DNA of 36,107 nucleotides from a virus. Made by a program: the position numbers and the translations under genes. The notes beneath the pieces are model-generated. The model saw only the letters and a program-made list of their open reading frames with translations, was not told where the DNA came from and did no database searches. Shown one piece after another: positions 1 through 36,107 of this stretch. The DNA is taken from IMG/VR virus record IMGVR_UViG_3300045988_117996; one strand, 5' to 3'. Numbering within the stretch: the first letter of the stretch is position 1; each line of letters starts with the position of its first letter.

Positions 1-119
1 AGGCGCGCAGGAGGGCCTTCTCGACCTGCTCGATGTTGTTCTGCCGTATCTCGATGCACTCGGCGGTATCCAGCTTCGCGGCGTTTACGATCTCCTCGGT
101 GATGAGGGTCCCGTGCCGC
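1..119. repeat. Terminal direct repeat copy 1 (119 bp, identical to 35989-36107)
   Basis: Base-by-base comparison of both window ends shows 119/119 identity. Typical of an assembly overlap of a circular or terminally redundant molecule. Confidence 0.95.
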
Positions 120-731: not shown

Positions 732-2471
732 TCAACCTCTTGTCGTCAGGCACTCGTCGATAAGATCGCCAAACTCGGCGTTGTCGACTCGCGCGAACTC
801 CGTCTCCTCGGCCTTGATTATACCAAAATACCAGCTCACGTCCTCATCGCCGCTCTGTGGGTCTATGAACTTGATAGCGTTTCCCGTCTTTTCCGCAACG
901 AAAACGTGTCGTCCGCTCTTGCCGCAAAGCGCCTGGTCCCAGGTAACGGAGACCTCGGCCCTCGCGTCCCCGTTTATCGCAAGGAGGAATGACATTATTT
1001 CTTTCTCCGGCTTATCGCCACCACGTTTCCAAGTGGCCCCCGGAAACACCTTTTTGTACGACTCGGCGCGCGCGAAGGGGTCATATGCCGATATTTTCCC
1101 CCACTTGTTCATCTTAACCGGCTTCGCAACGACGTCGAGCCCACGCCGTCTCGCCTCATACGCCGGAACGCACCTTTGGCAGTTGTACGAGTACCTGCCG
1201 TCTTTGTCCTTCTTTGTCTTAAAGTTCGGGTTGACCTTGGCAAGGTCGGAGCCCGCGGAATGCTCGCCCTTGATCTCCTTGAAAACGCGCCGACCGTTGA
1301 CAATGGGCGTCGAACCGGGCGCAAGCGCCGTGTCCAACACCTTCTGCTGGTCGCCGGCACTCATCTTGCGGAACGAGCCGGACGGTATGCCGTAGTCCTC
1401 GAGCTGCCGCGAGAGCCGCTTTCGCGCCTCGGTCTTGGACACGCCTGCCGCATCCAGCTTGCGCTTGGTTCCGGGCATTTCCATGAACTCGGAGATGGTG
1501 CGGTTCGCGGGCTTGGTGCCGTTGACGGCGGGCTTGCCCGCCTTCCATTCCTCGTAGGTCATGCCCTCGGGCAGGCGGCTGAACCGCTCGCCGTCGAGCA
1601 CGTCGAGTCCGTCACAGCACGCCACCAGCGTGCAGCGGCAGTTCGCCGTCTCGGCATACGGCGCCTCCGGGTCGCCGGGATAGCGGCACCCGTTGCTGAA
1701 CTTCTCGCCGACCTCGACCTTCTCGCGGTCAATCTTTCTGTGGCTCGATCGCGTGCGCAGGTCGAGCGTCGCCACCCATTCCTGCTGCACCTTGATACCG
1801 AGCCCCTTGGCCCTCTTGTAGCTGTCGACACGCCCGGCGTTCTCCGCCGCAGTCGTCGAGGTGCGCGCCAAACGCACCGCCGCCGCGCGGTTCGCCCCCG
1901 TCACGTTCTGCATGCGCTTGGCTATCTTTGGTATCGACTCGCCGAGCAGCACGCCCTGCGTGATCTGGTTGGCGATGAGCCGGCGGTTCCACGCCACGTC
2001 CTTGACGACGTTGACGGACGGCTTTGGCAGGTAGCTGTCGTGGTCGGTGAGCAGTCTCTGAACGGTCGAGGCGTCCTGCAGTGCGTAGGCCGTGTCAACG
2101 CCAACGGCGCTCTCGACCTGCCACGTGCCGTAGTTGTAGTTCTCGGCGTAGACCTCGGGCAGCCTGCCCTCGATGGCGGCGGCCGCGACGACGTTCGCGT
2201 GCGTCATTGCCTCGGCGCACTGCTTGAGCACGATTCGGTAGCGCCTGCCCGCCGCGATCTTCCCGCTTCGCCAAGACCTGTATTGCGCCTTGGTGATCTC
2301 GCCGGCCTCAAGCCGCTCGCGCATCTTCTCGTCGTCAGCCTCGAACTGCGCCAGATAGCGCTTGAGGTTGGCGTAGGCCGTCTTGCTCGCCTCGCCGTAC
2401 ACTCCCGCCACCTCGCGCTCGAACGCCCGAATCTCGGCGTCTGAGAACTCGTGAGCGCTATCCTTCGCCAT
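732..2471 (-). CDS. Minor head protein (Mu F / SPP1 gp7 domain) fused to a C-terminal papain-fold toxin-like domain
   Basis: MuF region: NRAAAVRLARTSTTAAENAGRVDSY...LDLRTRSSHR...ANCRCT. C-terminus: VNPNF..YSYNCQRCVPAYEARRRG...GRHVFVAE..IKFIDPQSG (Cys-His-Asp order). Start moved to ATG 2471 because GGAGG lies 6 nt upstream. Confidence 0.8.
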   Translation of the reverse strand: MAKDSAHEFSDAEIRAFEREVAGVYGEASKTAYANLKRYLAQFEADDEKMRERLEAGEITKAQYRSWRSGKIAAGRRYRIVLKQCAEAMTHANVVAAAAIEGRLPEVYAENYNYGTWQVESAVGVDTAYALQDASTVQRLLTDHDSYLPKPSVNVVKDVAWNRRLIANQITQGVLLGESIPKIAKRMQNVTGANRAAAVRLARTSTTAAENAGRVDSYKRAKGLGIKVQQEWVATLDLRTRSSHRKIDREKVEVGEKFSNGCRYPGDPEAPYAETANCRCTLVACCDGLDVLDGERFSRLPEGMTYEEWKAGKPAVNGTKPANRTISEFMEMPGTKRKLDAAGVSKTEARKRLSRQLEDYGIPSGSFRKMSAGDQQKVLDTALAPGSTPIVNGRRVFKEIKGEHSAGSDLAKVNPNFKTKKDKDGRYSYNCQRCVPAYEARRRGLDVVAKPVKMNKWGKISAYDPFARAESYKKVFPGATWKRGGDKPEKEIMSFLLAINGDARAEVSVTWDQALCGKSGRHVFVAEKTGNAIKFIDPQSGDEDVSWYFGIIKAEETEFARVDNAEFGDLIDECLTTRG

Positions 2472-2517
2472 GCGCCGCCTCCAATCGTCGGCACGCATGG
2501 TCGCCCGCGCATAACGG

Positions 2518-2661: not shown

Positions 2662-3003
2662 TTACTCACCTCCAACGATGTCGCCGAGCTCGAGAAGGGC
2701 CGCCTGCGAGTCGGCGACCTGCTGCTGGAGCGATGCGATCTGCTCCTCCATGCTCATGCCGTCCGCCTCGTGAGCCGCCCAGACGGTGTCAAAGTCAGCC
2801 TTTGTGCCCTCGACTGTCAGTTCGCCAGTCGGGTCGGTGAAGTGCAGCTCCTCGTAGGTGAACACCTTCACCTTGACGGAACCGCCCTCGCCGCCCTGCT
2901 CCTCGCGCTCGCCCTCGGCGATGCCGCGGCGCAGCCAGACGTCGGTCCCCGCAATCTCGACCGTCTCGGGCCTCTCGCCCGTTCGCTCCGACTTCACAAC
3001 CAT
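2662..3003 (-). CDS. Hypothetical acidic protein (113 aa), fibre-module associated
   Basis: Strong RBS AGGAGGAAAAAT before ATG 3003. C-terminal helix EEQIASLQQQVADSQAALLELGDIV. Confidence 0.7.
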   Translation of the reverse strand: MVVKSERTGERPETVEIAGTDVWLRRGIAEGEREEQGGEGGSVKVKVFTYEELHFTDPTGELTVEGTKADFDTVWAAHEADGMSMEEQIASLQQQVADSQAALLELGDIVGGE

Positions 3004-3013
3004 ATTTTTCCTC

Positions 3014-4045
3014 CTAACCCACGGCCCTCGCCGCGTTGAATATGCACCGCTTAGCGTTCATCTGGTGCTCCATGACGGCCGTTTTCAACCAGCCCCAGTA
3101 AGAGCACACGCGCCTCGCCAAGCGCTCGGTGCGCCTGCGCATGTAGCGCGCGAACGCGCGTCGCAGTCGTTTCCAGAGCCTCTTTCGCAAGTCGACCCGG
3201 CGCCCGCGAGCGCACCAGATGCGATAGCCCGCGAAGTCGATGGGCTCGGCGCCGTTGCGCCTCACCTTCCACGGCTTCAGTGACAATCCTAGCCGCCCCA
3301 AAACGCGCGCGGCGATGGCCGCGGCCTTCCTGAGCGAGCGCTTTGAGTTGCCGAGAAAATAGCCGTCGTCGGCGTACCACACCTGGCATCCCGCGAGCCT
3401 CACGCGCTTGCCGCGCCGCTCCTTCGCCGCCTCCTCGACCGCGTGGTACGCGAACGAGATCACGAACGCCGCCAACCGAAGCGACAGGTAGCTGCCGAGG
3501 ATAAGGACGCCGTTCATCGTCGACAGCAGCGAATGGAGCAGGTAGAGGACTTGGCTGTTCTTGACGTAGCGCGCCACCAGACCCTCCACTATCTCCGTCC
3601 GCATCGAGCCGTAGCAGTTGCGGATGTCGACGTGTACGTGGTAGGCGAAGCGGTGAACCTCGCGCCTGAGCTTGCGCATCCCCAGCGCCGCGCCCTTGCC
3701 CTTGACGCCGCTCGACACCTGCCAGAAGCCGACCTTGGCGGCAAGGAGCGGCTCGAGCGCCCCAACGCACAGGTAGTTGCACACCTGCCGCTTGATGCTC
3801 TCGACGCTTATCTCGCGCAGCTTGCCGCTGTTCGGGTCGTGTTTCAGATAGGTTCGGATGGGCTCGAACGCAAGCGTCTCGGTCGAGAGCTCTAGCCAGA
3901 TGCGGTCGACGAACGCCGTCTCGGTGCCGTATTCGTCGGCGACGCGCCAGCCGTTCTCCTTGCCGGAGTCGCTTTTCTTCCATCGGTGCAGGGCCTCGAC
4001 GACGCTTCTGCGCGTGAACTCGAGGCCCTTGCAGTAGGTTTTCAT
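3014..4045 (-). CDS. DGR reverse transcriptase (343 aa)
   Basis: RT motifs VDIRNCYGSM (A), LILGSYLSL (B/4), WYADDGYF (C), LGLSLKPWK, FAGYRIW. Lies 157 bp downstream of the TR. Confidence 0.9.
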   Translation of the reverse strand: MKTYCKGLEFTRRSVVEALHRWKKSDSGKENGWRVADEYGTETAFVDRIWLELSTETLAFEPIRTYLKHDPNSGKLREISVESIKRQVCNYLCVGALEPLLAAKVGFWQVSSGVKGKGAALGMRKLRREVHRFAYHVHVDIRNCYGSMRTEIVEGLVARYVKNSQVLYLLHSLLSTMNGVLILGSYLSLRLAAFVISFAYHAVEEAAKERRGKRVRLAGCQVWYADDGYFLGNSKRSLRKAAAIAARVLGRLGLSLKPWKVRRNGAEPIDFAGYRIWCARGRRVDLRKRLWKRLRRAFARYMRRRTERLARRVCSYWGWLKTAVMEHQMNAKRCIFNAARAVG

Positions 4046-4202
4046 AGATCAAAGCTCTTTCTGTCTGTCATACGAGCGTTCGCCTTGCGGCTACCAGCCC
4101 GTGAGCCTTGCGGACAAATTTCACTCAAAGGAGTCAGGCTGAGCCGCGTCCCGCCAGAAAGCGGCGGGCGCGGTAGACACGGTGCGAGTAGAGATTTATA
4201 GA
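4046..4202 (-). other. TR-RT spacer, candidate spacer (Sp) part of the DGR RNA, with a GC hairpin at 4144-4173
   Basis: No ORF. Hairpin ccgcg(t)cccgcc / ggcgggcgcgg with loop agaaagc. Also 9-bp direct repeat gccttgcgg at 4082 and 4105. Confidence 0.45.
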
Positions 4203-4315
4203 CAGAAAGCCGGGAGACGAAGTTCCAAGTGGCCCTACCGGACCTGTTCCTCGAGTTCGCGTAACGAAGACCGGCATTCGAGCCGTTCCTCAGGTTGCCG
4301 AGGAACTGAACCAGA
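4203..4315 (-). repeat. DGR template repeat (TR), 113 bp
   Basis: Gap-free alignment to 4416-4528. 16 of its 19 coding-strand adenines differ in the VR. Non-coding location. Confidence 0.9.
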
Positions 4316-4392
4316 AACCAGCGCCGCCCTCACCGTGAATCCCTGTTTGGGGTTAGGAGGGGGCCAGTCCCCTCTCAGGGCTACGCCCTGAT

Positions 4393-6018
4393 TCACCCCC
4401 GGCTACGGCCCGTAGCAGAAAGCCGGGAGACGAAGCTCCAAGCGGCCCCACCGGACCGGGCCAACGAGTCCGCGCAACGAAGACCGGCACCCGAGCCGAG
4501 CCCCAGGTAGCCGAGGAACCGAACCAGACGGATCGTGCCCTTGACTTTGCCGCCGGAGGTGTCGAAGTAGAAGTAGTCACCGACACCGGTCGTCGCCGAG
4601 CCGCCGAGCCCCTTTCCCAAGATGAGGCCGTTGACGAACTGGATGTCGAGCATGTAGCCATCTGCCGTCGGCATGCACGCCGCCGTCGGGGTCACCCCGT
4701 CCGCCACGGCGTTCTTCTTCTCATTGCGTGTGTCGGGGTTGACCGCGATGCCGAAACCCGTGCCGTCGGAAACGAAGAGCGTATCGCCCATGAACTCCCA
4801 CAGGCCCAGCCCCGTCTCGACGCCGCCGACCTTGAACGGATGCTTGCCGTCCTTCGCCACCTGGCCGTCGCCCACGAGGGCATCGGTGTTGCCCGTGCAC
4901 CACGGCGCACTCTGGAGCCATGTGTTCACGGTCGTGTCGAACGCCTTGGCGACGTCCATGAGAAGCGCCACGTTGCCGTCTGCGAGCGTCTCCTTGCCGC
5001 CGACGACCGCGCCGTCGAACACGTCGTACGCCGCCGCGGCGCCTCGGTCTGGGCACGTGGTGCCCGTGTCGGTGCCGTACATCATCGACGCACCCACGGG
5101 AATCTTCGCCGCCTGCTCGGCGGTGACGACCACGCGCGTGACGCCTGTCTCGGCGAGCGCGGGGTGGATCTGGATGTTGAAGTCCGTGCAACCCGGGAAG
5201 TCCACCTGGGAGGACTTGCAGAGCGTCTTGGTCAACTGGTGGAAGTTGATATACCACTGGTCATAGACGCTCATGCCCGAGTAGCCCGTGGTCGCGGTCT
5301 TGCAAAGGTCGACGAGCGAGTCGTGCGACGTCGTGCGGTTGGCGACCTTCGCGCCCGAGACGGAGCGCGGGCGCCCGTCGGCGTCGATGCTCATGGGATA
5401 CGTCGGCGTCAGCATGTACGGTCGCAGCGTGCCGTCCGGCAGCAACGCCTTGGGGTTCGGCTGCGAGCCGCTGAATCGGCTGTCGGACCACGAGACGAGC
5501 AGGTTGCCGTTCGTCAGCACCTCGACCGCCTGCCACACGACCGGCGCGATCTCGTAGACGTTGTTGCCGTGTCCGTTGTCCACGCGCGAGAAGCCGTAGT
5601 CGACGCCGTCGATGGCCTCGACCCACGGCACGCCGTCGGCGTCGGCACCGGCGTTGGCGGACACGTGGAACCACGGGCCGCCCTCGGCGTCGAACGGGTC
5701 GACAGCCGCGCTCGTCGCCGTCGCGGGCACGAACTCGGTGGAGGCCACGTGCTTCGCGGCAGCGCTCATGGGCTGGATGTCGGTGGGGCTGCCCGCCGGG
5801 ATGAGGAACGTGTACACCAGCCCCGTCTTGTGCTTGTCGACCATCGCGGCGACGGTCTCGTTCTTATAGCGCCCGGTCGAGGCGTCGCGCTCGAGCGTCT
5901 TCTGGTCGCCAAGGTTCTTCACCGCGCCGACAAGCGCCCACACCGCCTCGTCCGATGCCAGCGGGTCCGCGTACTCGAACCCCTCGGTTGCCTGCTCGGC
6001 TGTCTGCGTATCGGCCAT
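4393..6018 (-). CDS. DGR variable (target) protein, putative receptor-binding/fibre protein with a C-type-lectin-like variable C-terminus (541 aa)
   Basis: VR occupies the last ~38 codons (..LVRFLGYLGLGSGAGLRCADSLARSGGAAWSFVSRLS..). ATG 6018 abuts the stop of 6019..6924. Confidence 0.9.
   Translation of the reverse strand: MADTQTAEQATEGFEYADPLASDEAVWALVGAVKNLGDQKTLERDASTGRYKNETVAAMVDKHKTGLVYTFLIPAGSPTDIQPMSAAAKHVASTEFVPATATSAAVDPFDAEGGPWFHVSANAGADADGVPWVEAIDGVDYGFSRVDNGHGNNVYEIAPVVWQAVEVLTNGNLLVSWSDSRFSGSQPNPKALLPDGTLRPYMLTPTYPMSIDADGRPRSVSGAKVANRTTSHDSLVDLCKTATTGYSGMSVYDQWYINFHQLTKTLCKSSQVDFPGCTDFNIQIHPALAETGVTRVVVTAEQAAKIPVGASMMYGTDTGTTCPDRGAAAAYDVFDGAVVGGKETLADGNVALLMDVAKAFDTTVNTWLQSAPWCTGNTDALVGDGQVAKDGKHPFKVGGVETGLGLWEFMGDTLFVSDGTGFGIAVNPDTRNEKKNAVADGVTPTAACMPTADGYMLDIQFVNGLILGKGLGGSATTGVGDYFYFDTSGGKVKGTIRLVRFLGYLGLGSGAGLRCADSLARSGGAAWSFVSRLSATGRSRG
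4402..4416 (-). promoter_or_regulatory. Hairpin abutting the 3' end of the VR (6-bp stem, 3-nt loop), absent next to the TR
   Basis: gctacg ggc cgtagc on the coding strand. Its position matches the VR-flanking hairpin/cruciform element described for the Bordetella phage DGR. Confidence 0.4.
4416..4528 (-). repeat. DGR variable repeat (VR), 113 bp
   Basis: See TR. 17 mismatches, 16 at TR adenines. Lies inside the 3' end of ORF 4393..6018. Confidence 0.9.
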
Positions 6019-6924
6019 TTAGGCACCTACCTTTCGCATTTGGCAAATCTTGCCGTTTACCTTCTTGAGTCCCAGCGCTGTCACGGCAGCCGCCGAGTCG
6101 ATAATCGACTGGTAGTTCAGGGCTGCCGTCTTGGCGTCCTTGAGCGCCGCCTGCGCGTCGGCGAGGGCCTTGGTCGAGTCCTTCTCGCGCTTCTGCTCGG
6201 CGGTCTTGCGCCCCGTCTCCGCCTCCTTGCGCTCCGTCTCGGAGGTCTTGCGCTCGGACTCGGTCCGCTTGCGCTCGGACTCGGAGTCGGCGCGTCCTTT
6301 CTCAGCCGTTTCGACAGAAGTCTTGAGCTGCTTGAACTCGTTGTTGACCTTGTTCACGCCAGCCGCCGCGTCCGTCGCGGGCTTCTTGAGCTCCGCGATC
6401 TGCTCGGCGGTGAGGTCACTGTATCTCAGCGCGTCACCCTTCGGCACGCCGACGACCAGCACGTTGCCCTCCATCGTCGCCGTTGCCTCCGAGCCCGAGG
6501 CGAGCGTCGTGGCGCGTGCCCCCTTGACCTCGGCGGCGACAGCCATGTCGCGCGCGGCCTCCGCCGCCTTCTGCGCGGCCTTGGCCTCGTCTCGCGCCGT
6601 CTCTGCGTCCTTGATGGTGCGCTGGTCGCTCGGCTCGTAGATGTACTCGGCGGGCTTGGCTCGCCTCTTTACGTCCCAGAGCGCCTCGATGCGCGTGCGT
6701 CCGCCGTATGCCTCGTCCGTGATGTATGCCCATGCGTACACGCGCCCAGCCGCCTGGAGCAGCTCGTCGGGAATCTTCGCCTTGCTGTCGGCCACCTCGA
6801 CCGTGTAGCACGTCCCCGTGGTCGACTTGGCGAAATGCACCTGCTCGCAGCCGACAACCTCGACCTCGCGCCCGGTGTCCCACTGCCACAGCTCGCCGTC
6901 AAGCACCTGCAATGCCGCCATCAC
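6019..6924 (-). CDS. Fibre/baseplate-associated protein (301 aa): BppU_N-like N-terminus, coiled-coil with heptad repeats
   Basis: ATGA overlap with the portal stop. N-terminus ELWQWDTGREVEVVG..IPDELLQAAGRVYAWAYI resembles baseplate upper protein N-domains (from memory). Repeats ESERKRT/ESERKTS/ETERKEA. Confidence 0.6.
   Translation of the reverse strand: MMAALQVLDGELWQWDTGREVEVVGCEQVHFAKSTTGTCYTVEVADSKAKIPDELLQAAGRVYAWAYITDEAYGGRTRIEALWDVKRRAKPAEYIYEPSDQRTIKDAETARDEAKAAQKAAEAARDMAVAAEVKGARATTLASGSEATATMEGNVLVVGVPKGDALRYSDLTAEQIAELKKPATDAAAGVNKVNNEFKQLKTSVETAEKGRADSESERKRTESERKTSETERKEAETGRKTAEQKREKDSTKALADAQAALKDAKTAALNYQSIIDSAAAVTALGLKKVNGKICQMRKVGA
6205..6290 (-). repeat. 21-bp imperfect tandem repeat (about 4 copies) encoding the E-S/T-E-R-K heptads
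   Basis: Unit cttgcgc... recurs at 6205, 6226, 6247 and 6268. Confidence 0.7.
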
Positions 6925-8339
6925 TCATCACCTTCCTCGTCGTTGTCGTCGTCCTCGTCGCCCTCCTGGGCACCCTTCGCGTTAGCCGCCAGGGCGGGCG
7001 GCAGCGCTGCCATGCGCTCCTCCTGCTCCCGCTGCTTGCGCTCCAAAATCTTCGCCCTCTCGTCGGGCGTGATGTTCGGCAGCTTTCGTAGAATCGTCTC
7101 GTCGTCCAGATACTCGGCCTCCAGGCACACGGTCTCGACCTGCTCCTTGGTGTTGCTGATGCGAGTGCGCGTGAACACGGGCGTGTCCTCGATGCCCTGC
7201 AACGCAAGGATGTCCATGATACCCTCGCGGATGTGGCGCTCAAACTCGGAGGCCTCCTCGTCCATCGGCTGGTATGCCGCGTCGATATGGTCGTTGGTCG
7301 CCCCCGCCGCGATGGTGTGGACGTCCAGCGCGCCGAAGTCCTCGTAGATGTCGGCCTTGATCTGCGCCAGCGTCTCCTTGCGGCCCTCGACGGGCACATC
7401 CTGCGTGTACGGCGTCACGGACTGCCCCTGCTCGGCGTCGACCTCGGCCACGTGCGTCAGCTTGAGCTTCGCCCGCCACAGGTCGAGGTCCCTGTCGTCC
7501 ATGCCGCCGGCTCCGTTGATGAGCCAGTAGATCTGCGCGCAGTCGCGCGTGTCGTTCACCAGGCCGCTCTTGATCAGGTCGTAGGCGTCGATGCTCTCGC
7601 GCATGCCGACGAGCGTGCTCTGGTGCGCGTCGCTGCCCCAGACCGCCACGATGGGCAGGCGGGAGTAGTTCTCCGCATCGACGGCCAGCTTCATCCCGTC
7701 CGCCGGTATCTCCCGATACGTAACCTTGTAGGCGCGCTTGGCATCGGCCACCTCGAAGTCGAAGCCGCTGCCGCCCGACACCATCTCCGTGTAGCCGTCC
7801 TGCTCGTAGAGGGTCGCGTGCCACGGGTGGTCGGAGTCGAGCCGCCAGAACCTCACGCCGGCGTATAGCGCCCCCGAGTACTCGTCCCACACCGGGCAGA
7901 ACTCATCGGCGGTGAACACGTCGATGTGGTCGAGGTTCCAAAACGGAAATGACACACCGTGGATGAGCGCCTTGAGCCCCATCTCCATGACATCGTCGTC
8001 GAAGCGGTCGCCAAGCCCCTCCTTGGTCGTGTCCTTGCCGCCCGCCGAGACGTCCACGAAGCTCACGCCCTTACCAAGCGAGTACGTGCAGCGCTGGACG
8101 TTTAGGCGCTTGAACAGGTTACTCGCCAGCCTCAGCTTCGAGGCTGTGAAGTCCTCGGCCTCGGCACCGGAGCACGAGTAGATCTTCTGCACGAAACGGT
8201 TGATCGTGACATTGTGCTGGCGGTAGTACTCGTTCGCGGTGACGGCGTTGCGGTACATCTCGCTCGACATGTGCCGCTCGATGGCATCTGCCGCGAATGC
8301 CGTCGCCGACGCCGCCGCCTTGAGGTCGCCATCGGTCAC
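6921..8339 (-). CDS. Portal protein (SPP1 gp6-like), 472 aa
   Basis: Follows TerL. The long ORF 6921..8861 overlaps TerL, so the start is moved to GTG 8339 (AAAGG 7 nt upstream). Acidic C-terminal tail. Confidence 0.8.
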   Translation of the reverse strand: MTDGDLKAAASATAFAADAIERHMSSEMYRNAVTANEYYRQHNVTINRFVQKIYSCSGAEAEDFTASKLRLASNLFKRLNVQRCTYSLGKGVSFVDVSAGGKDTTKEGLGDRFDDDVMEMGLKALIHGVSFPFWNLDHIDVFTADEFCPVWDEYSGALYAGVRFWRLDSDHPWHATLYEQDGYTEMVSGGSGFDFEVADAKRAYKVTYREIPADGMKLAVDAENYSRLPIVAVWGSDAHQSTLVGMRESIDAYDLIKSGLVNDTRDCAQIYWLINGAGGMDDRDLDLWRAKLKLTHVAEVDAEQGQSVTPYTQDVPVEGRKETLAQIKADIYEDFGALDVHTIAAGATNDHIDAAYQPMDEEASEFERHIREGIMDILALQGIEDTPVFTRTRISNTKEQVETVCLEAEYLDDETILRKLPNITPDERAKILERKQREQEERMAALPPALAANAKGAQEGDEDDDNDEEGDE

Positions 8340-8362
8340 CAAAGGACCTTTAGACAAAGCCG

Positions 8363-9559
8363 CTACCTCCCTCCAAAGAATGGGTTTACCTGCTCTTTCG
8401 CAGGCTTGTACATGCGCATGGTCGCCACGCCGTAACGGAGCGCGTCGCAGCTGTGGTCCTCGACCTTGACGGGCCTGTCGCCATCCGCCTTGGCGTCCCA
8501 GCAGTAGCCGCCGAGCTCGCCTATCAGCCCCGCGCAGGCGTCGGAGATGCGCACCGTGCCGTTGCCCAGGCACACCCCCGTCTCTCGTATGCCGTCCGCG
8601 ACGTCGTTGCGCCCCTTCTTGGTCTTGAACCCGGCCTGCCGCATCGCGGCGATGAAGCTCGTGGCGCTCGGGTCGATGATGAACGTGGGCGGCTTGCCCA
8701 GCCCGCGCACGAAGTCGGCCATGTCGGCCACGTAGTCGGCGTCCGTCTTCTGGTGCCCCGTGTCGCGGCCCGAGTAGCGGTACTCGTCCACCGCGTGCCA
8801 CACCTCGCCGTCGTACGCCCACAGCAGCGCCGCGAAGGCATTCTGCGTGCCGTAGTCGCACGACACGACATATTTGACGGCGCGGCCGTCATAGCGGCTC
8901 TCGAGCGCCTTCTCCCACTCGGGGTAGACCAGGCCCTCGGCCAGCGTCCACTTGCCCAAGATGTAGCGGTCGTAGTACACGCCGCTGCCGTAGTCCTTGA
9001 TGAGGGCTTCGATGACATCCGGTGCCAGCGCACCGTCCCAGATCGTGTAGTCCTGCCTGTAGATGTCGCTGTCGCCGTCGAGGAACCGCTTGAACCAGTG
9101 GTTCGGGCTGTCGGGGTTACAGGTACCGTCGAAGCAGCTGTGCTCGCAGCGCAGGCGGCTCTTGAGCATCTGGAACACGTCTTCGCTCCACGTGGCGACC
9201 TCATCGCCGTAGACCCACTCGAACGTGGCGCCCTGAATCTTGGATACGCTTGTCTTCTTATCCGCCCCGAGGCAGTAGACCTTGCGCCCGAAAATCTGGG
9301 CCGTGTTGTCCCGCCCGATCTGGCTGACGACGTCTTCGCTGTAGAGCGAGCGCATCGGCTCGAGGATGTTGCGCTCGAGCGTCGAGCGGGTGTTCCCGAT
9401 CATCACCGCCAGCCCCTCGCCCCTCATGGCGAGAAGCCTCTGCGGTATGGTCACGGCTATGTCGACGTAGCTCTTGCCCGAGCCCGTCGCCCCGCACTTC
9501 ACGTTGTAGCGGTGCGTGCAGTTGGCGAGGTACTCGCGCTGCATCCTCGTGAGCGGCAT
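8363..9559 (-). CDS. terL: Terminase large subunit (PBSX/Terminase_3-like)
   Basis: Walker A GATGSGKS and a nuclease-domain C-terminus. Sits between terS and portal. Confidence 0.95.
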   Translation of the reverse strand: MPLTRMQREYLANCTHRYNVKCGATGSGKSYVDIAVTIPQRLLAMRGEGLAVMIGNTRSTLERNILEPMRSLYSEDVVSQIGRDNTAQIFGRKVYCLGADKKTSVSKIQGATFEWVYGDEVATWSEDVFQMLKSRLRCEHSCFDGTCNPDSPNHWFKRFLDGDSDIYRQDYTIWDGALAPDVIEALIKDYGSGVYYDRYILGKWTLAEGLVYPEWEKALESRYDGRAVKYVVSCDYGTQNAFAALLWAYDGEVWHAVDEYRYSGRDTGHQKTDADYVADMADFVRGLGKPPTFIIDPSATSFIAAMRQAGFKTKKGRNDVADGIRETGVCLGNGTVRISDACAGLIGELGGYCWDAKADGDRPVKVEDHSCDALRYGVATMRMYKPAKEQVNPFFGGR

Positions 9560-35722: not shown

Positions 35723-36107
35723 CTACGCGCCACCCCTCAGGTGCTTCTCGAGAATCGCCCGGTACGTGTCGCCGTGACCCGTTGCCGCCTTGCGCAGGAA
35801 GTGCTTGCCCTTCATGCGGGAAGTTCCCTCCTCGACGTACGGCGCATACTCGACATTTGTACCGATGAAGCAGTCGTAGCCTTTGAGGAGGTGCGTGACA
35901 GAGTTGCGCAACCTGCCCGTGTCGACCGGGCACGTCGCCTTGGCGTAGCCCTCCGCGACGAGGCCTATCTCCTCTAGGCCCGTTTTATAGGCGCGCAGGA
36001 GGGCCTTCTCGACCTGCTCGATGTTGTTCTGCCGTATCTCGATGCACTCGGCGGTATCCAGCTTCGCGGCGTTTACGATCTCCTCGGTGATGAGGGTCCC
36101 GTGCCGC
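35723..36107 (-). CDS. HK97 gp10-family protein, 3' part (5' end continues at 157..1 through the junction)
   Basis: ..AKATCPVDTGRLRNSVTHLL..IGTNVEYAPYVEEGTSRM.. matches the gp10 family signature. Confidence 0.75.
   Translation of the reverse strand, partial: RHGTLITEEIVNAAKLDTAECIEIRQNNIEQVEKALLRAYKTGLEEIGLVAEGYAKATCPVDTGRLRNSVTHLLKGYDCFIGTNVEYAPYVEEGTSRMKGKHFLRKAATGHGDTYRAILEKHLRGGA
35989..36107. repeat. Terminal direct repeat copy 2 (identical to 1-119)
   Basis: 119/119 identity by direct comparison. Confidence 0.95.

Follow-up and report, generated by a model that had tools for sequence, protein, structure and literature searches.

The 36,107-nucleotide viral DNA of IMG/VR record IMGVR_UViG_3300045988_117996, which we analysed at its full length and will call the window, very probably carries a functional diversity-generating retroelement (DGR) of the type lacking the accessory protein Avd (Architecture A; Wu et al., 2018), housed in a temperate siphophage of the human gut actinobacterium Collinsella and accompanied by a small open reading frame (ORF), p113, that can be likened by description to the CH1 protein of other Avd-less DGRs. 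In this element a template region (TR) would be copied, with changes at its adenines, by the adjacent reverse transcriptase (RT) into a variable region (VR) at the 3′ end of a neighbouring target gene. As far as sequence comparison can tell, the DGR is almost certainly genuine and active. The features and their coordinates are collected in Table 1.

A template and a variable repeat that differ at adenines

A repeat finder returned a single direct repeat of 113 nt in two copies, TR and VR, at an offset of 213 nt and with 85% identity. Their gap-free alignment contains 17 mismatches, of which 16 fall on template adenines and are not spread over all template bases; the hypergeometric probability of placing at least 16 of 17 mismatches on 19 adenines is 1.4e-15. 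On the minus (coding) strand the VR keeps three of the 19 TR adenines and replaces 16, ten by G, three by T and three by C. Outside the adenines 93 of 94 positions agree, and the one that differs is a G>T (C4250 against A4463 on the plus strand). The numbers of mismatches, of substituted adenines and of identical other positions, and the position of the exception, had been claimed in an original prediction made by reading the sequence, and all were reproduced. Read in the frame of the target gene, the TR gives LVQFLGNLRNGSNAGLRYANSRNRSGRATWNFVSRLS and the VR LVRFLGYLGLGSGAGLRCADSLARSGGAAWSFVSRLS, with 12 residues recoded, and the first full codon of the VR is residue 498 of the 541-aa ORF. These translations, the placement of the VR at the 3′ end of that ORF and the 343-aa RT ORF starting 157 nt after the TR on the same strand were likewise predicted exactly. 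We found no third VR-like copy in the window.

The adenines are placed so that the protein can vary without being truncated: 11 are at codon position 1, eight at position 2 and none at position 3, and no substitution of a TR adenine can reach a stop codon. Thirteen codons are recoded, and the list of adenine-containing codons comprises seven AAY, four AGG, and CAG, TAC and ACT. The theoretical repertoire was calculated as up to ~6e10 protein variants.

Diversification among related Collinsella prophages

RTs at least 96% identical to that of the window were found in about 100 fetched loci, almost all from Collinsella metagenome-assembled genomes and isolates (the complete chromosome NZ_AP031421 and C. 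aerofaciens TM115-146 are among them), which identifies the host as Collinsella and the element as part of a widespread prophage. Both TR and VR are carried by 86 loci, the window included, and these form the basis of the comparison between assemblies. The TR/VR offset is 213 nt in the window and 81 of the 85 fetched loci, 212 in three and 215 in one. Although these prophage loci are nearly identical, they contain 83 distinct VRs, against one identical TR that is common to 38 of them. The 83 distinct VRs together show 1,209 adenine substitutions, as opposed to 32 non-adenine mismatches in ~7,700 positions; where the TR has an adenine, the VR reads T 578 times, G 510, A 435 and C 121. None of the 83 translations contains a stop codon. 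A>T is thus the commonest substitution, in agreement with the preference of the Bordetella DGR RT (bRT) for misincorporating dATP (PMC7826257).

In a gap-free alignment of 73 full cassettes the nucleotide diversity reaches 0.638 at adenine-templated VR sites; the remaining VR sites stand at 0.021, the target gene outside the VR at 0.033 and the RT gene at 0.028. The least variable parts of the cassette are the non-coding spacers, between VR and TR (0.006) and between TR and RT (0.008). Non-adenine polymorphisms of the TR recur in the VR, with identical counts at positions 40, 43, 85 and 88 and near-identical counts at 76 and 79, so information flows from TR to VR. The last variable VR position is 93, and at positions 108–109 the VR has TT in 86 of 86 loci while the TR has AA in 83 of 86; transfer therefore ends inside the adenine-free segment CTTCGTCTCCCGGC, which resembles the initiation of mutagenic homing (IMH) boundary of other DGRs. 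The lone non-adenine mismatch of the window is unique among the 86 VRs and so represents an ordinary point difference.

The pattern extends well beyond the closest relatives. The compact layout is seen down to 27% RT identity (L050), with VR–TR offsets of 203–304 nt and TR–RT gaps of ~150–205 nt, and the TR/VR pairs remain adenine-restricted over the same range, with 0–3 non-adenine mismatches per pair. In L128 the TR/VR stretch was found without any mismatch, and in L048 (37% RT identity) no clear TR/VR pair was found. Could an ordinary duplication, diverged by point mutation, recombination or selection and never passing through reverse transcription, have produced such repeats? The only thing that speaks for it is the existence of a direct repeat. 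The adenine restriction, with P ~1e-15 in the window, recurs in every lineage in which a mismatched TR/VR pair was identified, non-adenine changes in the TR are mirrored in the VR and an RT gene is always adjacent, and we regard the probability of this explanation as negligible. Together, the adenine-restricted mismatches, the relatives of the RT and the 83 VRs in 86 loci support mutagenic retrohoming by a DGR, as had been proposed for the window.

Two further observations were made in these assemblies. In 10 of 128 related loci (L001, L002, L012, L015, L016, L017, L029, L095, L097 and L105) 213 bp are missing, and the sequence upstream of the VR is joined to that downstream of the TR via a single chimeric VR/TR copy with 0–17 adenine changes, which extends the target ORF into the start of the RT. 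Either the assemblies collapsed across a heterogeneous VR or the two repeats truly recombined, and collapsed or chimeric assemblies would fit mixed populations. Some assembled TRs also contain VR-like substitutions, and nucleotide diversity within the TR is 0.124 at adenine positions against 0.020 at non-adenine positions; either chimeric assemblies or occasional VR-to-TR conversion would account for this.

The reverse transcriptase

The RT ORF is intact, and its product is one of a protein family that comprises over 100 clusters. In the PDB it has a single relative, bRT (8ub7 series; E 5.6e-7, residues 19–318 aligned), an enzyme of similar size, and it matches phrog_1423 (reverse transcriptase) at 4e-32. 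Searches with tblastn led to the RTs of the DGR-carrying phages LBR48 (Lactobacillus), FP_Epona (Faecalibacterium) and the crAss-like cr56_1, which are phage-borne as here but share only 24–28% identity with the window RT. The group II intron model scored 48.5 bits against a cut-off of 300, and retron and defence RT models gave at most 33 bits, far below their cut-offs. By these scores, and with bRT as the sole structural relative, the enzyme stands apart from the RTs of retrons and group II introns, which is in line with the original prediction.

Two long-range RNA helices around the template

The RNA was modelled on 13 and then 17 aligned lineage representatives; the group with 27% RT identity (L049–L053, L128 and L132) was excluded because its spacer is not convincingly alignable. 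Two long-range helices connect the TR 3′ end and the sequence just upstream of the TR with the spacer between TR and RT. Helix U, found independently by RNAalifold, pairs CACGGUG, which is preceded by a conserved GGGAU motif just upstream of the TR, with CACCGUG in the spacer; across the 17 sequences 99% of its cells are paired and six of its seven pairs have changed in a compensatory way. Helix C pairs UCUGUCU, which spans the TR 3′ end, with AGACAGA near the far end of the spacer, with compensatory changes at three of seven pairs and 94% of cells paired. The 3′ strand of helix C ends in an adenosine, which is A in 16 of the 17 sequences and sits just before the RT ribosome-binding site. When the partner columns were slid, the paired fraction for helices U and C dropped from 94–99% to 33–41%; for the whole structure, which also includes local hairpins in the spacer, it dropped from 94–97% to 32–42% on a slide of 1–3 columns, and none of 500 shuffles reached the observed value. 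Four lineages that had not been used to derive the structure also fit the model.

In the Bordetella ribonucleoprotein, a duplex between avd and the spacer (Sp), termed the 'cPRT Stop' (Sp 59–70), lies beside a TR:Sp template:primer duplex (Sp 47–56) with A56 as the priming residue (Handa et al., bioRxiv 10.1101/2023.10.23.563531). The window RNA similarly forms two duplexes with the spacer, one through the segment upstream of the TR and one through the TR 3′ end, and it is plausible, by analogy, that helices U and C are the counterparts of the stop and template:primer duplexes, in which case helix C would be the template:primer duplex and the TR 3′ end its template side. The order of the strands differs. 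In Bordetella phage BPP-1 the primer strand is 5′ of the stop strand and the duplexes are nested, whereas in the window the stop-like strand lies ~110 nt 5′ of the primer-like strand, so that helices U and C cross. The crossing helices may represent either a pseudoknot or alternative folds. The published survey of such RNA elements covered Avd-containing DGRs only (Handa et al., bioRxiv 10.1101/2023.10.23.563531).

Outside the TR–RT region, two GC-rich hairpins follow the stop codon of the target gene, and as read from the alignment both are kept with compensatory changes in the groups with 72% and 48% RT identity. They are candidate target-recognition or terminator elements. Another hairpin, GCTACGG-G-CCGTAGC (4402–4416), located 3′ of the VR, was considered as a Bordetella-like cruciform and rejected, as it is not kept in the 72% group and overlaps coding sequence.

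A cassette without Avd

Only ~100 nt separate VR and TR, and neither Avd nor an HRDC or MutS-like protein was detected among the cassette ORFs (Pfam and NCBIfam) or ten other small ORFs of the window (Pfam). An avd gene is likewise absent in all the relatives examined. Such a TR–RT core, without Avd, HRDC or MutS-like genes, is shared with the Avd-less DGRs of Architecture A1 and Lineage 3 (PMC5758913). In the survey of Wu et al., 2018 avd was present in 74% of DGRs, Architecture A, with no accessory gene, accounted for 75 of 372 and Lineage 3 was without avd, while DGRs without any recognised accessory gene made up ~29% (PMC5758913).

Several points weigh against reading the element as a functional Avd-less DGR. 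The mechanism worked out for Bordetella requires Avd and, with no Avd, HRDC or MutS-like gene here, cannot be transferred directly. The purine run of helix C may owe its conservation partly to the RT ribosome-binding site, that is, to translation rather than priming. The Pfam RVT_1 score of the RT is 26 bits, below the gathering threshold of 29.6. Its motif 4, LGSYLSL, fits the first six positions of the signature [I/V/L]GxxxSQ and lacks the terminal Q, in contrast to bRT. This Q is L throughout the Coriobacteriia clade and SQ is kept in distant relatives (P0115–P0117 and P0119); in bRT the residue, Q187, contacts the incoming deoxynucleoside triphosphate (Handa et al., bioRxiv 10.1101/2023.10.23.563531), but a Q187P mutant retains adenine mutagenesis (PMC7826257), so the Q is not required for function and the natural Q>L change is consistent with this mutant. 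The window TR, along with two other loci, has TT at positions 108–109, so the usual difference between TR and VR at the boundary is absent: the TR 3′ end (4203–4208) is the VR-like GGCTTTCTG instead of the GGCAATCTG found in 83 of 86 loci, and the two repeats diverge at this boundary only after position 113. Finally, ongoing diversification within one population is suggested here by differences between assemblies.

Might the differences between TR and VR then be frozen relics of a DGR that was active only in the past? The fusion of VR and TR by the 213-bp deletion in the ten related loci and the unusual 3′ end of the window TR would fit such a fossil. It would not explain why prophages with 96–99% RT identity and a flanking nucleotide diversity of only ~0.03 carry 83 different VRs, why the RT ORF has stayed intact and conserved, or why the non-coding RNA elements are more constrained than the coding sequence. 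We consider a fossil very improbable and retain the reading of an active DGR.

The conserved small ORF p113

What is then encoded immediately after the RT? The start codon of p113 is 10 nt beyond the RT stop codon, which is overlapped by its AGGAGG ribosome-binding site. The acidic 113-aa product (isoelectric point, pI, 4.28) has no family match in Pfam, NCBIfam or PHROG. Of 13 lineage representatives with different flanking phage genes, 11 have a homologue directly after the RT, and none was seen in L131 and L132. A profile search among 1.84 billion representatives recovered a family of 80 clusters at 50% identity. In the loci of four remote members, each p113 homologue overlaps the 3′ end of a ~320–370-aa ORF that stands behind a ~520–540-aa protein; Pfam RVT_1 was found in three of these four ORFs, the fourth having no Pfam record, and the same four loci are DGRs by the adenine test. 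The structure of p113 was modelled as a four-strand sheet with three helices, with a predicted local distance difference test (pLDDT) score of 80, and searches with this fold had no significant match in the PDB or BFVD, the weak ones being to small, uncharacterised gut-siphophage proteins. Avd is a basic four-helix-bundle protein (PF05635 / TIGR02436), and an Avd-like four-helix bundle was ruled out for p113, since it is acidic and modelled as β-sheet plus helices. Among longer homologues of p113 there are matches to a tail-fibre PHROG (2e-9) and sub-threshold ones to DUF4376 and CBM_5_12.

Two roles for p113 within a DGR as described above have to be weighed. One is that of a lineage-specific accessory factor that would replace Avd, for example in RNA positioning or cDNA integration. 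Its presence after the RT in most representatives and in all four remote members, where its start overlaps the RT stop, its relocation together with the cassette in the window and the small size of the family would all fit. It is also small and acidic like CH1, an acidic protein (pI 4.7) confined to Avd-less DGRs (PMC5758913), a likeness by description only: CH1 of Architecture E is similarly a small ORF tied to its cassette, but has 160–169 aa and occurs in Bacteroides and relatives, while p113 occurs in Coriobacteriia phages. On the other hand, RNA binding is improbable for an acidic protein, the fold matches neither Avd nor any nucleic-acid-binding protein, the longer homologues point to tail fibres and no p113 homologue was seen in L131 and L132. 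Co-inheritance with the RT would, besides, be explained equally well if p113 were a partner of the fibre. Overall an accessory role is possible but is the less likely of the two.

The other role, to which we would give about an even chance and which we rate above the first, is that of a fibre-assembly or fibre-associated structural protein, with TR and RT inserted between the fibre gene and p113; the RT would then need only its own RNA and host factors. In relatives the gene sits between the fibre genes and holin/endolysin, the longer homologues carry tail-fibre and carbohydrate-binding hints, the closest predicted folds are those of the gut-siphophage small proteins and ~29% of DGRs lack a recognised accessory gene (PMC5758913). 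This role accounts less well for the fact that all family members in the sampled loci accompanied a DGR RT and that the overlap with the RT gene in several lineages suggests coupled expression.

The target and its fibre module

The protein that carries the VR has no Pfam or NCBIfam match, but matches phrog_17147 (unknown function) at 7e-44 and the C-terminal part of phrog_5302, a tail protein family. Its AlphaFold2 model, from an alignment of 44 sequences, has a pLDDT of 79.6 and a predicted template-modelling score (pTM) of 0.84, and its confidence is low only at the N-terminus and in the hypervariable VR (pLDDT <50 at residues 505–509 and 524–541). Among 350,542 PDB chains the best fold match is the Thermus aquaticus DGR protein TaqVP (5vf4; E 6e-4, probability 0.99), although its TM-scores of 0.31 and 0.42 are low and the sequences share 11–14% identity. 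As in TaqVP, Mtd and TvpA, the variable residues are in the C-terminal part; unlike TaqVP, the target has in addition a large N-terminal region (residues ~45–400) without a recognised family, and its model is poor across the VR.

Some homologues of the target are longer (585–925 aa), with N-terminal BppU_N baseplate or collagen-repeat domains, and in other relatives a BppU_N protein is encoded immediately upstream of the target. In the relatives with 72% and 48% RT identity the cassette stands after Tal/tail-fibre genes and before holin and endolysin. From this tail context, the BppU_N and collagen-containing homologues and the TaqVP match, the target would be the distal, receptor-binding part of a fibre. 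With moderate confidence, and from the fold match of the predicted structure together with the homologue architecture, we place the variation at the C-terminal tip, probably C-type-lectin-like, of this receptor-binding fibre protein. The original prediction had called the target a phage surface protein and had suggested comparison with C-type-lectin-fold DGR proteins; the first is borne out by the fold match, the domain fusions and the position between tail-fibre and lysis genes, and the second by TaqVP as the top match of the model, with the reservation that its TM-scores are low.

Directly upstream of the target is p301, a 301-aa ORF with a coiled coil, which probably provides the module with its fibre stalk or anchor. 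Pfam, NCBIfam and PHROG gave no match for it, BppU_N included, and PDB sequence searches with p301 and with the target profile returned nothing. In relatives its slot is occupied by tail-fibre-like or BppU_N proteins, and its N-terminal part is kept (76%) in relatives that have a different distal protein in the same slot. Within the p301 gene, at 6180–6263, there are three copies of a 42-nt direct repeat at 21-nt spacing, and they encode a heptad-periodic, charged (E/R/K/T-rich) coiled-coil segment.

Genome and position of the module

The first and last 119 nt of the window (1–119 and 35989–36107) are identical and it therefore represents a circularly closed, complete phage genome of ~35,988 bp. 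The phage is a temperate siphophage, with genes on the minus strand for terminase and portal, an SPP1-gp7/MuF-like minor head protein, the scaffold and major head proteins, the tape measure and tail proteins, endolysin and repressors, besides the cassette itself. A DNA search of INPHARED (50,697 phage records) gave only a 172-nt match, and a literature search found no published description of this phage or of a Collinsella DGR.

The cassette lies between portal and minor-head genes here and at the end of the tail module in relatives. This location, the lack of an avd gene, the conserved small ORF and the two covarying helices all go beyond the original prediction. In L168, L171, L172, L174, L179 and L180, whose minor-head proteins are 81–96% identical to that of the window, portal and gp7 are adjacent as in SPP1, while in L170 and L183 the same slot holds a homologue of p301 (76% identical) and, after it, an unrelated protein of 420 aa and an acidic ORF of 73 aa. 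Since the slot is empty or differently filled in relatives, the 4.4-kb unit of the window (p301, target, TR, RT and p113) is cargo of a variable slot.

Around this slot, the portal gene ends near 6921 and the minor head gene starts at 2498. The longest portal ORF (6921–8861, with GTG at 8861) overlaps the ORF of the terminase large subunit (8363–9559) by ~500 nt; gene calls in relatives and a PHROG match covering residues 191–643 suggest that the true start is further downstream. In the minor head protein (732–2498, minus strand) the N-terminal ~392 aa are 95–97% conserved among relatives, and the C-terminal ~200 aa (about 732–1320) are swapped between near-identical phages, with matches covering residues 1–392, 1–422 or 1–588. 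The 673-aa minor head protein of L170 has a HEFGH metalloprotease-like motif and that of another relative a weak Gln_amidase match, and the C-terminus looks like a MuF-type polymorphic effector domain.

Table 1. Features of the DGR cassette and fibre module in the window, ordered by position.
Feature	Position	Strand	Basis and remarks
p113, 113-aa acidic ORF (pI 4.28)	2662–3003	−	conserved cassette member, homologues after RT
Reverse transcriptase, 343 aa, YADD catalytic motif, motif 4 LGSYLSL	3014–4045	−	profile, PDB and phage matches
TR–RT spacer RNA	4046–4202	−	helix U 3′ strand 4178–4184, helix C 3′ strand 4060–4066; covariation
Spacer hairpins	GC stem-loop 4144–4173; two more 4123–4135 and 4072–4102	−	within 4046–4202
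Helix C 5′ strand UCUGUCU, spanning TR 3′ end	4200–4206	−	pairs with AGACAGA 4060–4066
TR (template region)	4203–4315	−	repeat alignment; modal TR shared by 38/86 loci
GGGAU motif and helix U 5′ strand CACGGUG (4331–4337), just upstream of TR	4331–4345	−	pairs with CACCGUG 4178–4184
Two GC-rich hairpins just past target stop: TCAGGGC-GTA-GCCCTGA, then GAGGGG-ACTG-GCCCCCTC	4357–4391	−	compensatory changes
DGR target gene, 541 aa, VR at C-terminus	4393–6018	−	PHROG, fold match, homologue architecture
Adenine-free VR 3′ end (CTTCGTCTCCCGGC + TTTCTG)	4416–4435	−	IMH-like boundary of information transfer
VR (variable region)	4416–4528	−	target residues ~498–534; 83 distinct versions in 86 loci
p301, 301-aa coiled-coil ORF directly upstream of target	6019–6924	−	heptad-phased 21-nt repeats; slot position

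Comparison with known systems and a possible mechanism

The closest well-described system is the DGR of BPP-1 (mtd-avd-TR-brt), with which the window element shares the one-strand order of target with VR, TR and RT, adenine-specific mutagenesis with A>T as the commonest change, a VR that forms the (here putative) C-terminal, C-type-lectin-type tip of a tail-fibre protein, and an adenine-free VR 3′ end bounding the transfer. The main differences, besides the crossing helices and the altered motif 4, are that BPP-1 has avd and the window has none, with VR and TR only ~100 nt apart. Siphophages of Gram-positive hosts have two-gene receptor-binding modules consisting of a BppU anchor and a distal receptor-binding protein, as in lactococcal TP901-1. 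The arrangement of a separate upstream protein (p301) followed by the distal target is the same, and BppU_N precedes or is fused to the target in relatives, but p301 itself has no BppU_N match and the window module stands between portal and minor-head genes, not in the tail module.

These comparisons suggest the following sequence of events. A minus-strand RNA running from about 4345 to 4046, its extent being approximate, would be made, comprising the upstream segment, the TR and the spacer, and would fold into the two long-range helices and local hairpins that covariation supports. The RT would then copy the TR into cDNA, placing random nucleotides opposite adenines, as the substitution pattern implies, possibly primed from the conserved adenosine that ends helix C, by analogy with Bordetella Sp A56. 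From the pattern across the 86 loci, the cDNA would replace the VR at the 3′ end of the target, stopping in the adenine-free VR end. The thirteen codons would be recoded in this way, giving the calculated repertoire free of stop codons, and the purpose, judging by the DGR family as a whole, may be to track changes in the host surface.

It is conceivable, if on balance doubtful, that the element departs from known systems in one of two further ways. Either this is an Avd-independent lineage with machinery of its own, with crossed, pseudoknot-like stop and primer duplexes and with p113, translationally coupled to the RT, taking part of the role of Avd; or, independently, the fibre is mounted on the head or neck and not on the baseplate, via a non-BppU anchor encoded in the portal/minor-head slot.

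Implications

The Avd-less layout has already been catalogued (Wu et al., 2018) and phage fibre targets are the norm for DGRs (Roux et al., 2021). What the window and its relatives add is modest but concrete: a conserved p113, covarying and differently ordered helices, a signature motif in which L stands in place of Q, and a relocated module. To our knowledge, prokaryotes have no natural means of targeted protein hypermutation other than DGRs, and the engineering of DGRs for directed evolution is under way; we know of DGR biochemistry only for the Avd-dependent element of Bordetella. The Collinsella prophage family offers a compact Avd-less cassette of ~3.4 kb with more than 80 natural VR variants, and it supplies a covariation-supported RNA model with candidates for the priming and stop elements, as well as one conserved gene that may be a partner, so that the question of Avd-independent retrohoming becomes directly testable. 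It is, moreover, a record of how a whole fibre module with its DGR has shifted from one genome position to another in phages of a genus common in the human gut.

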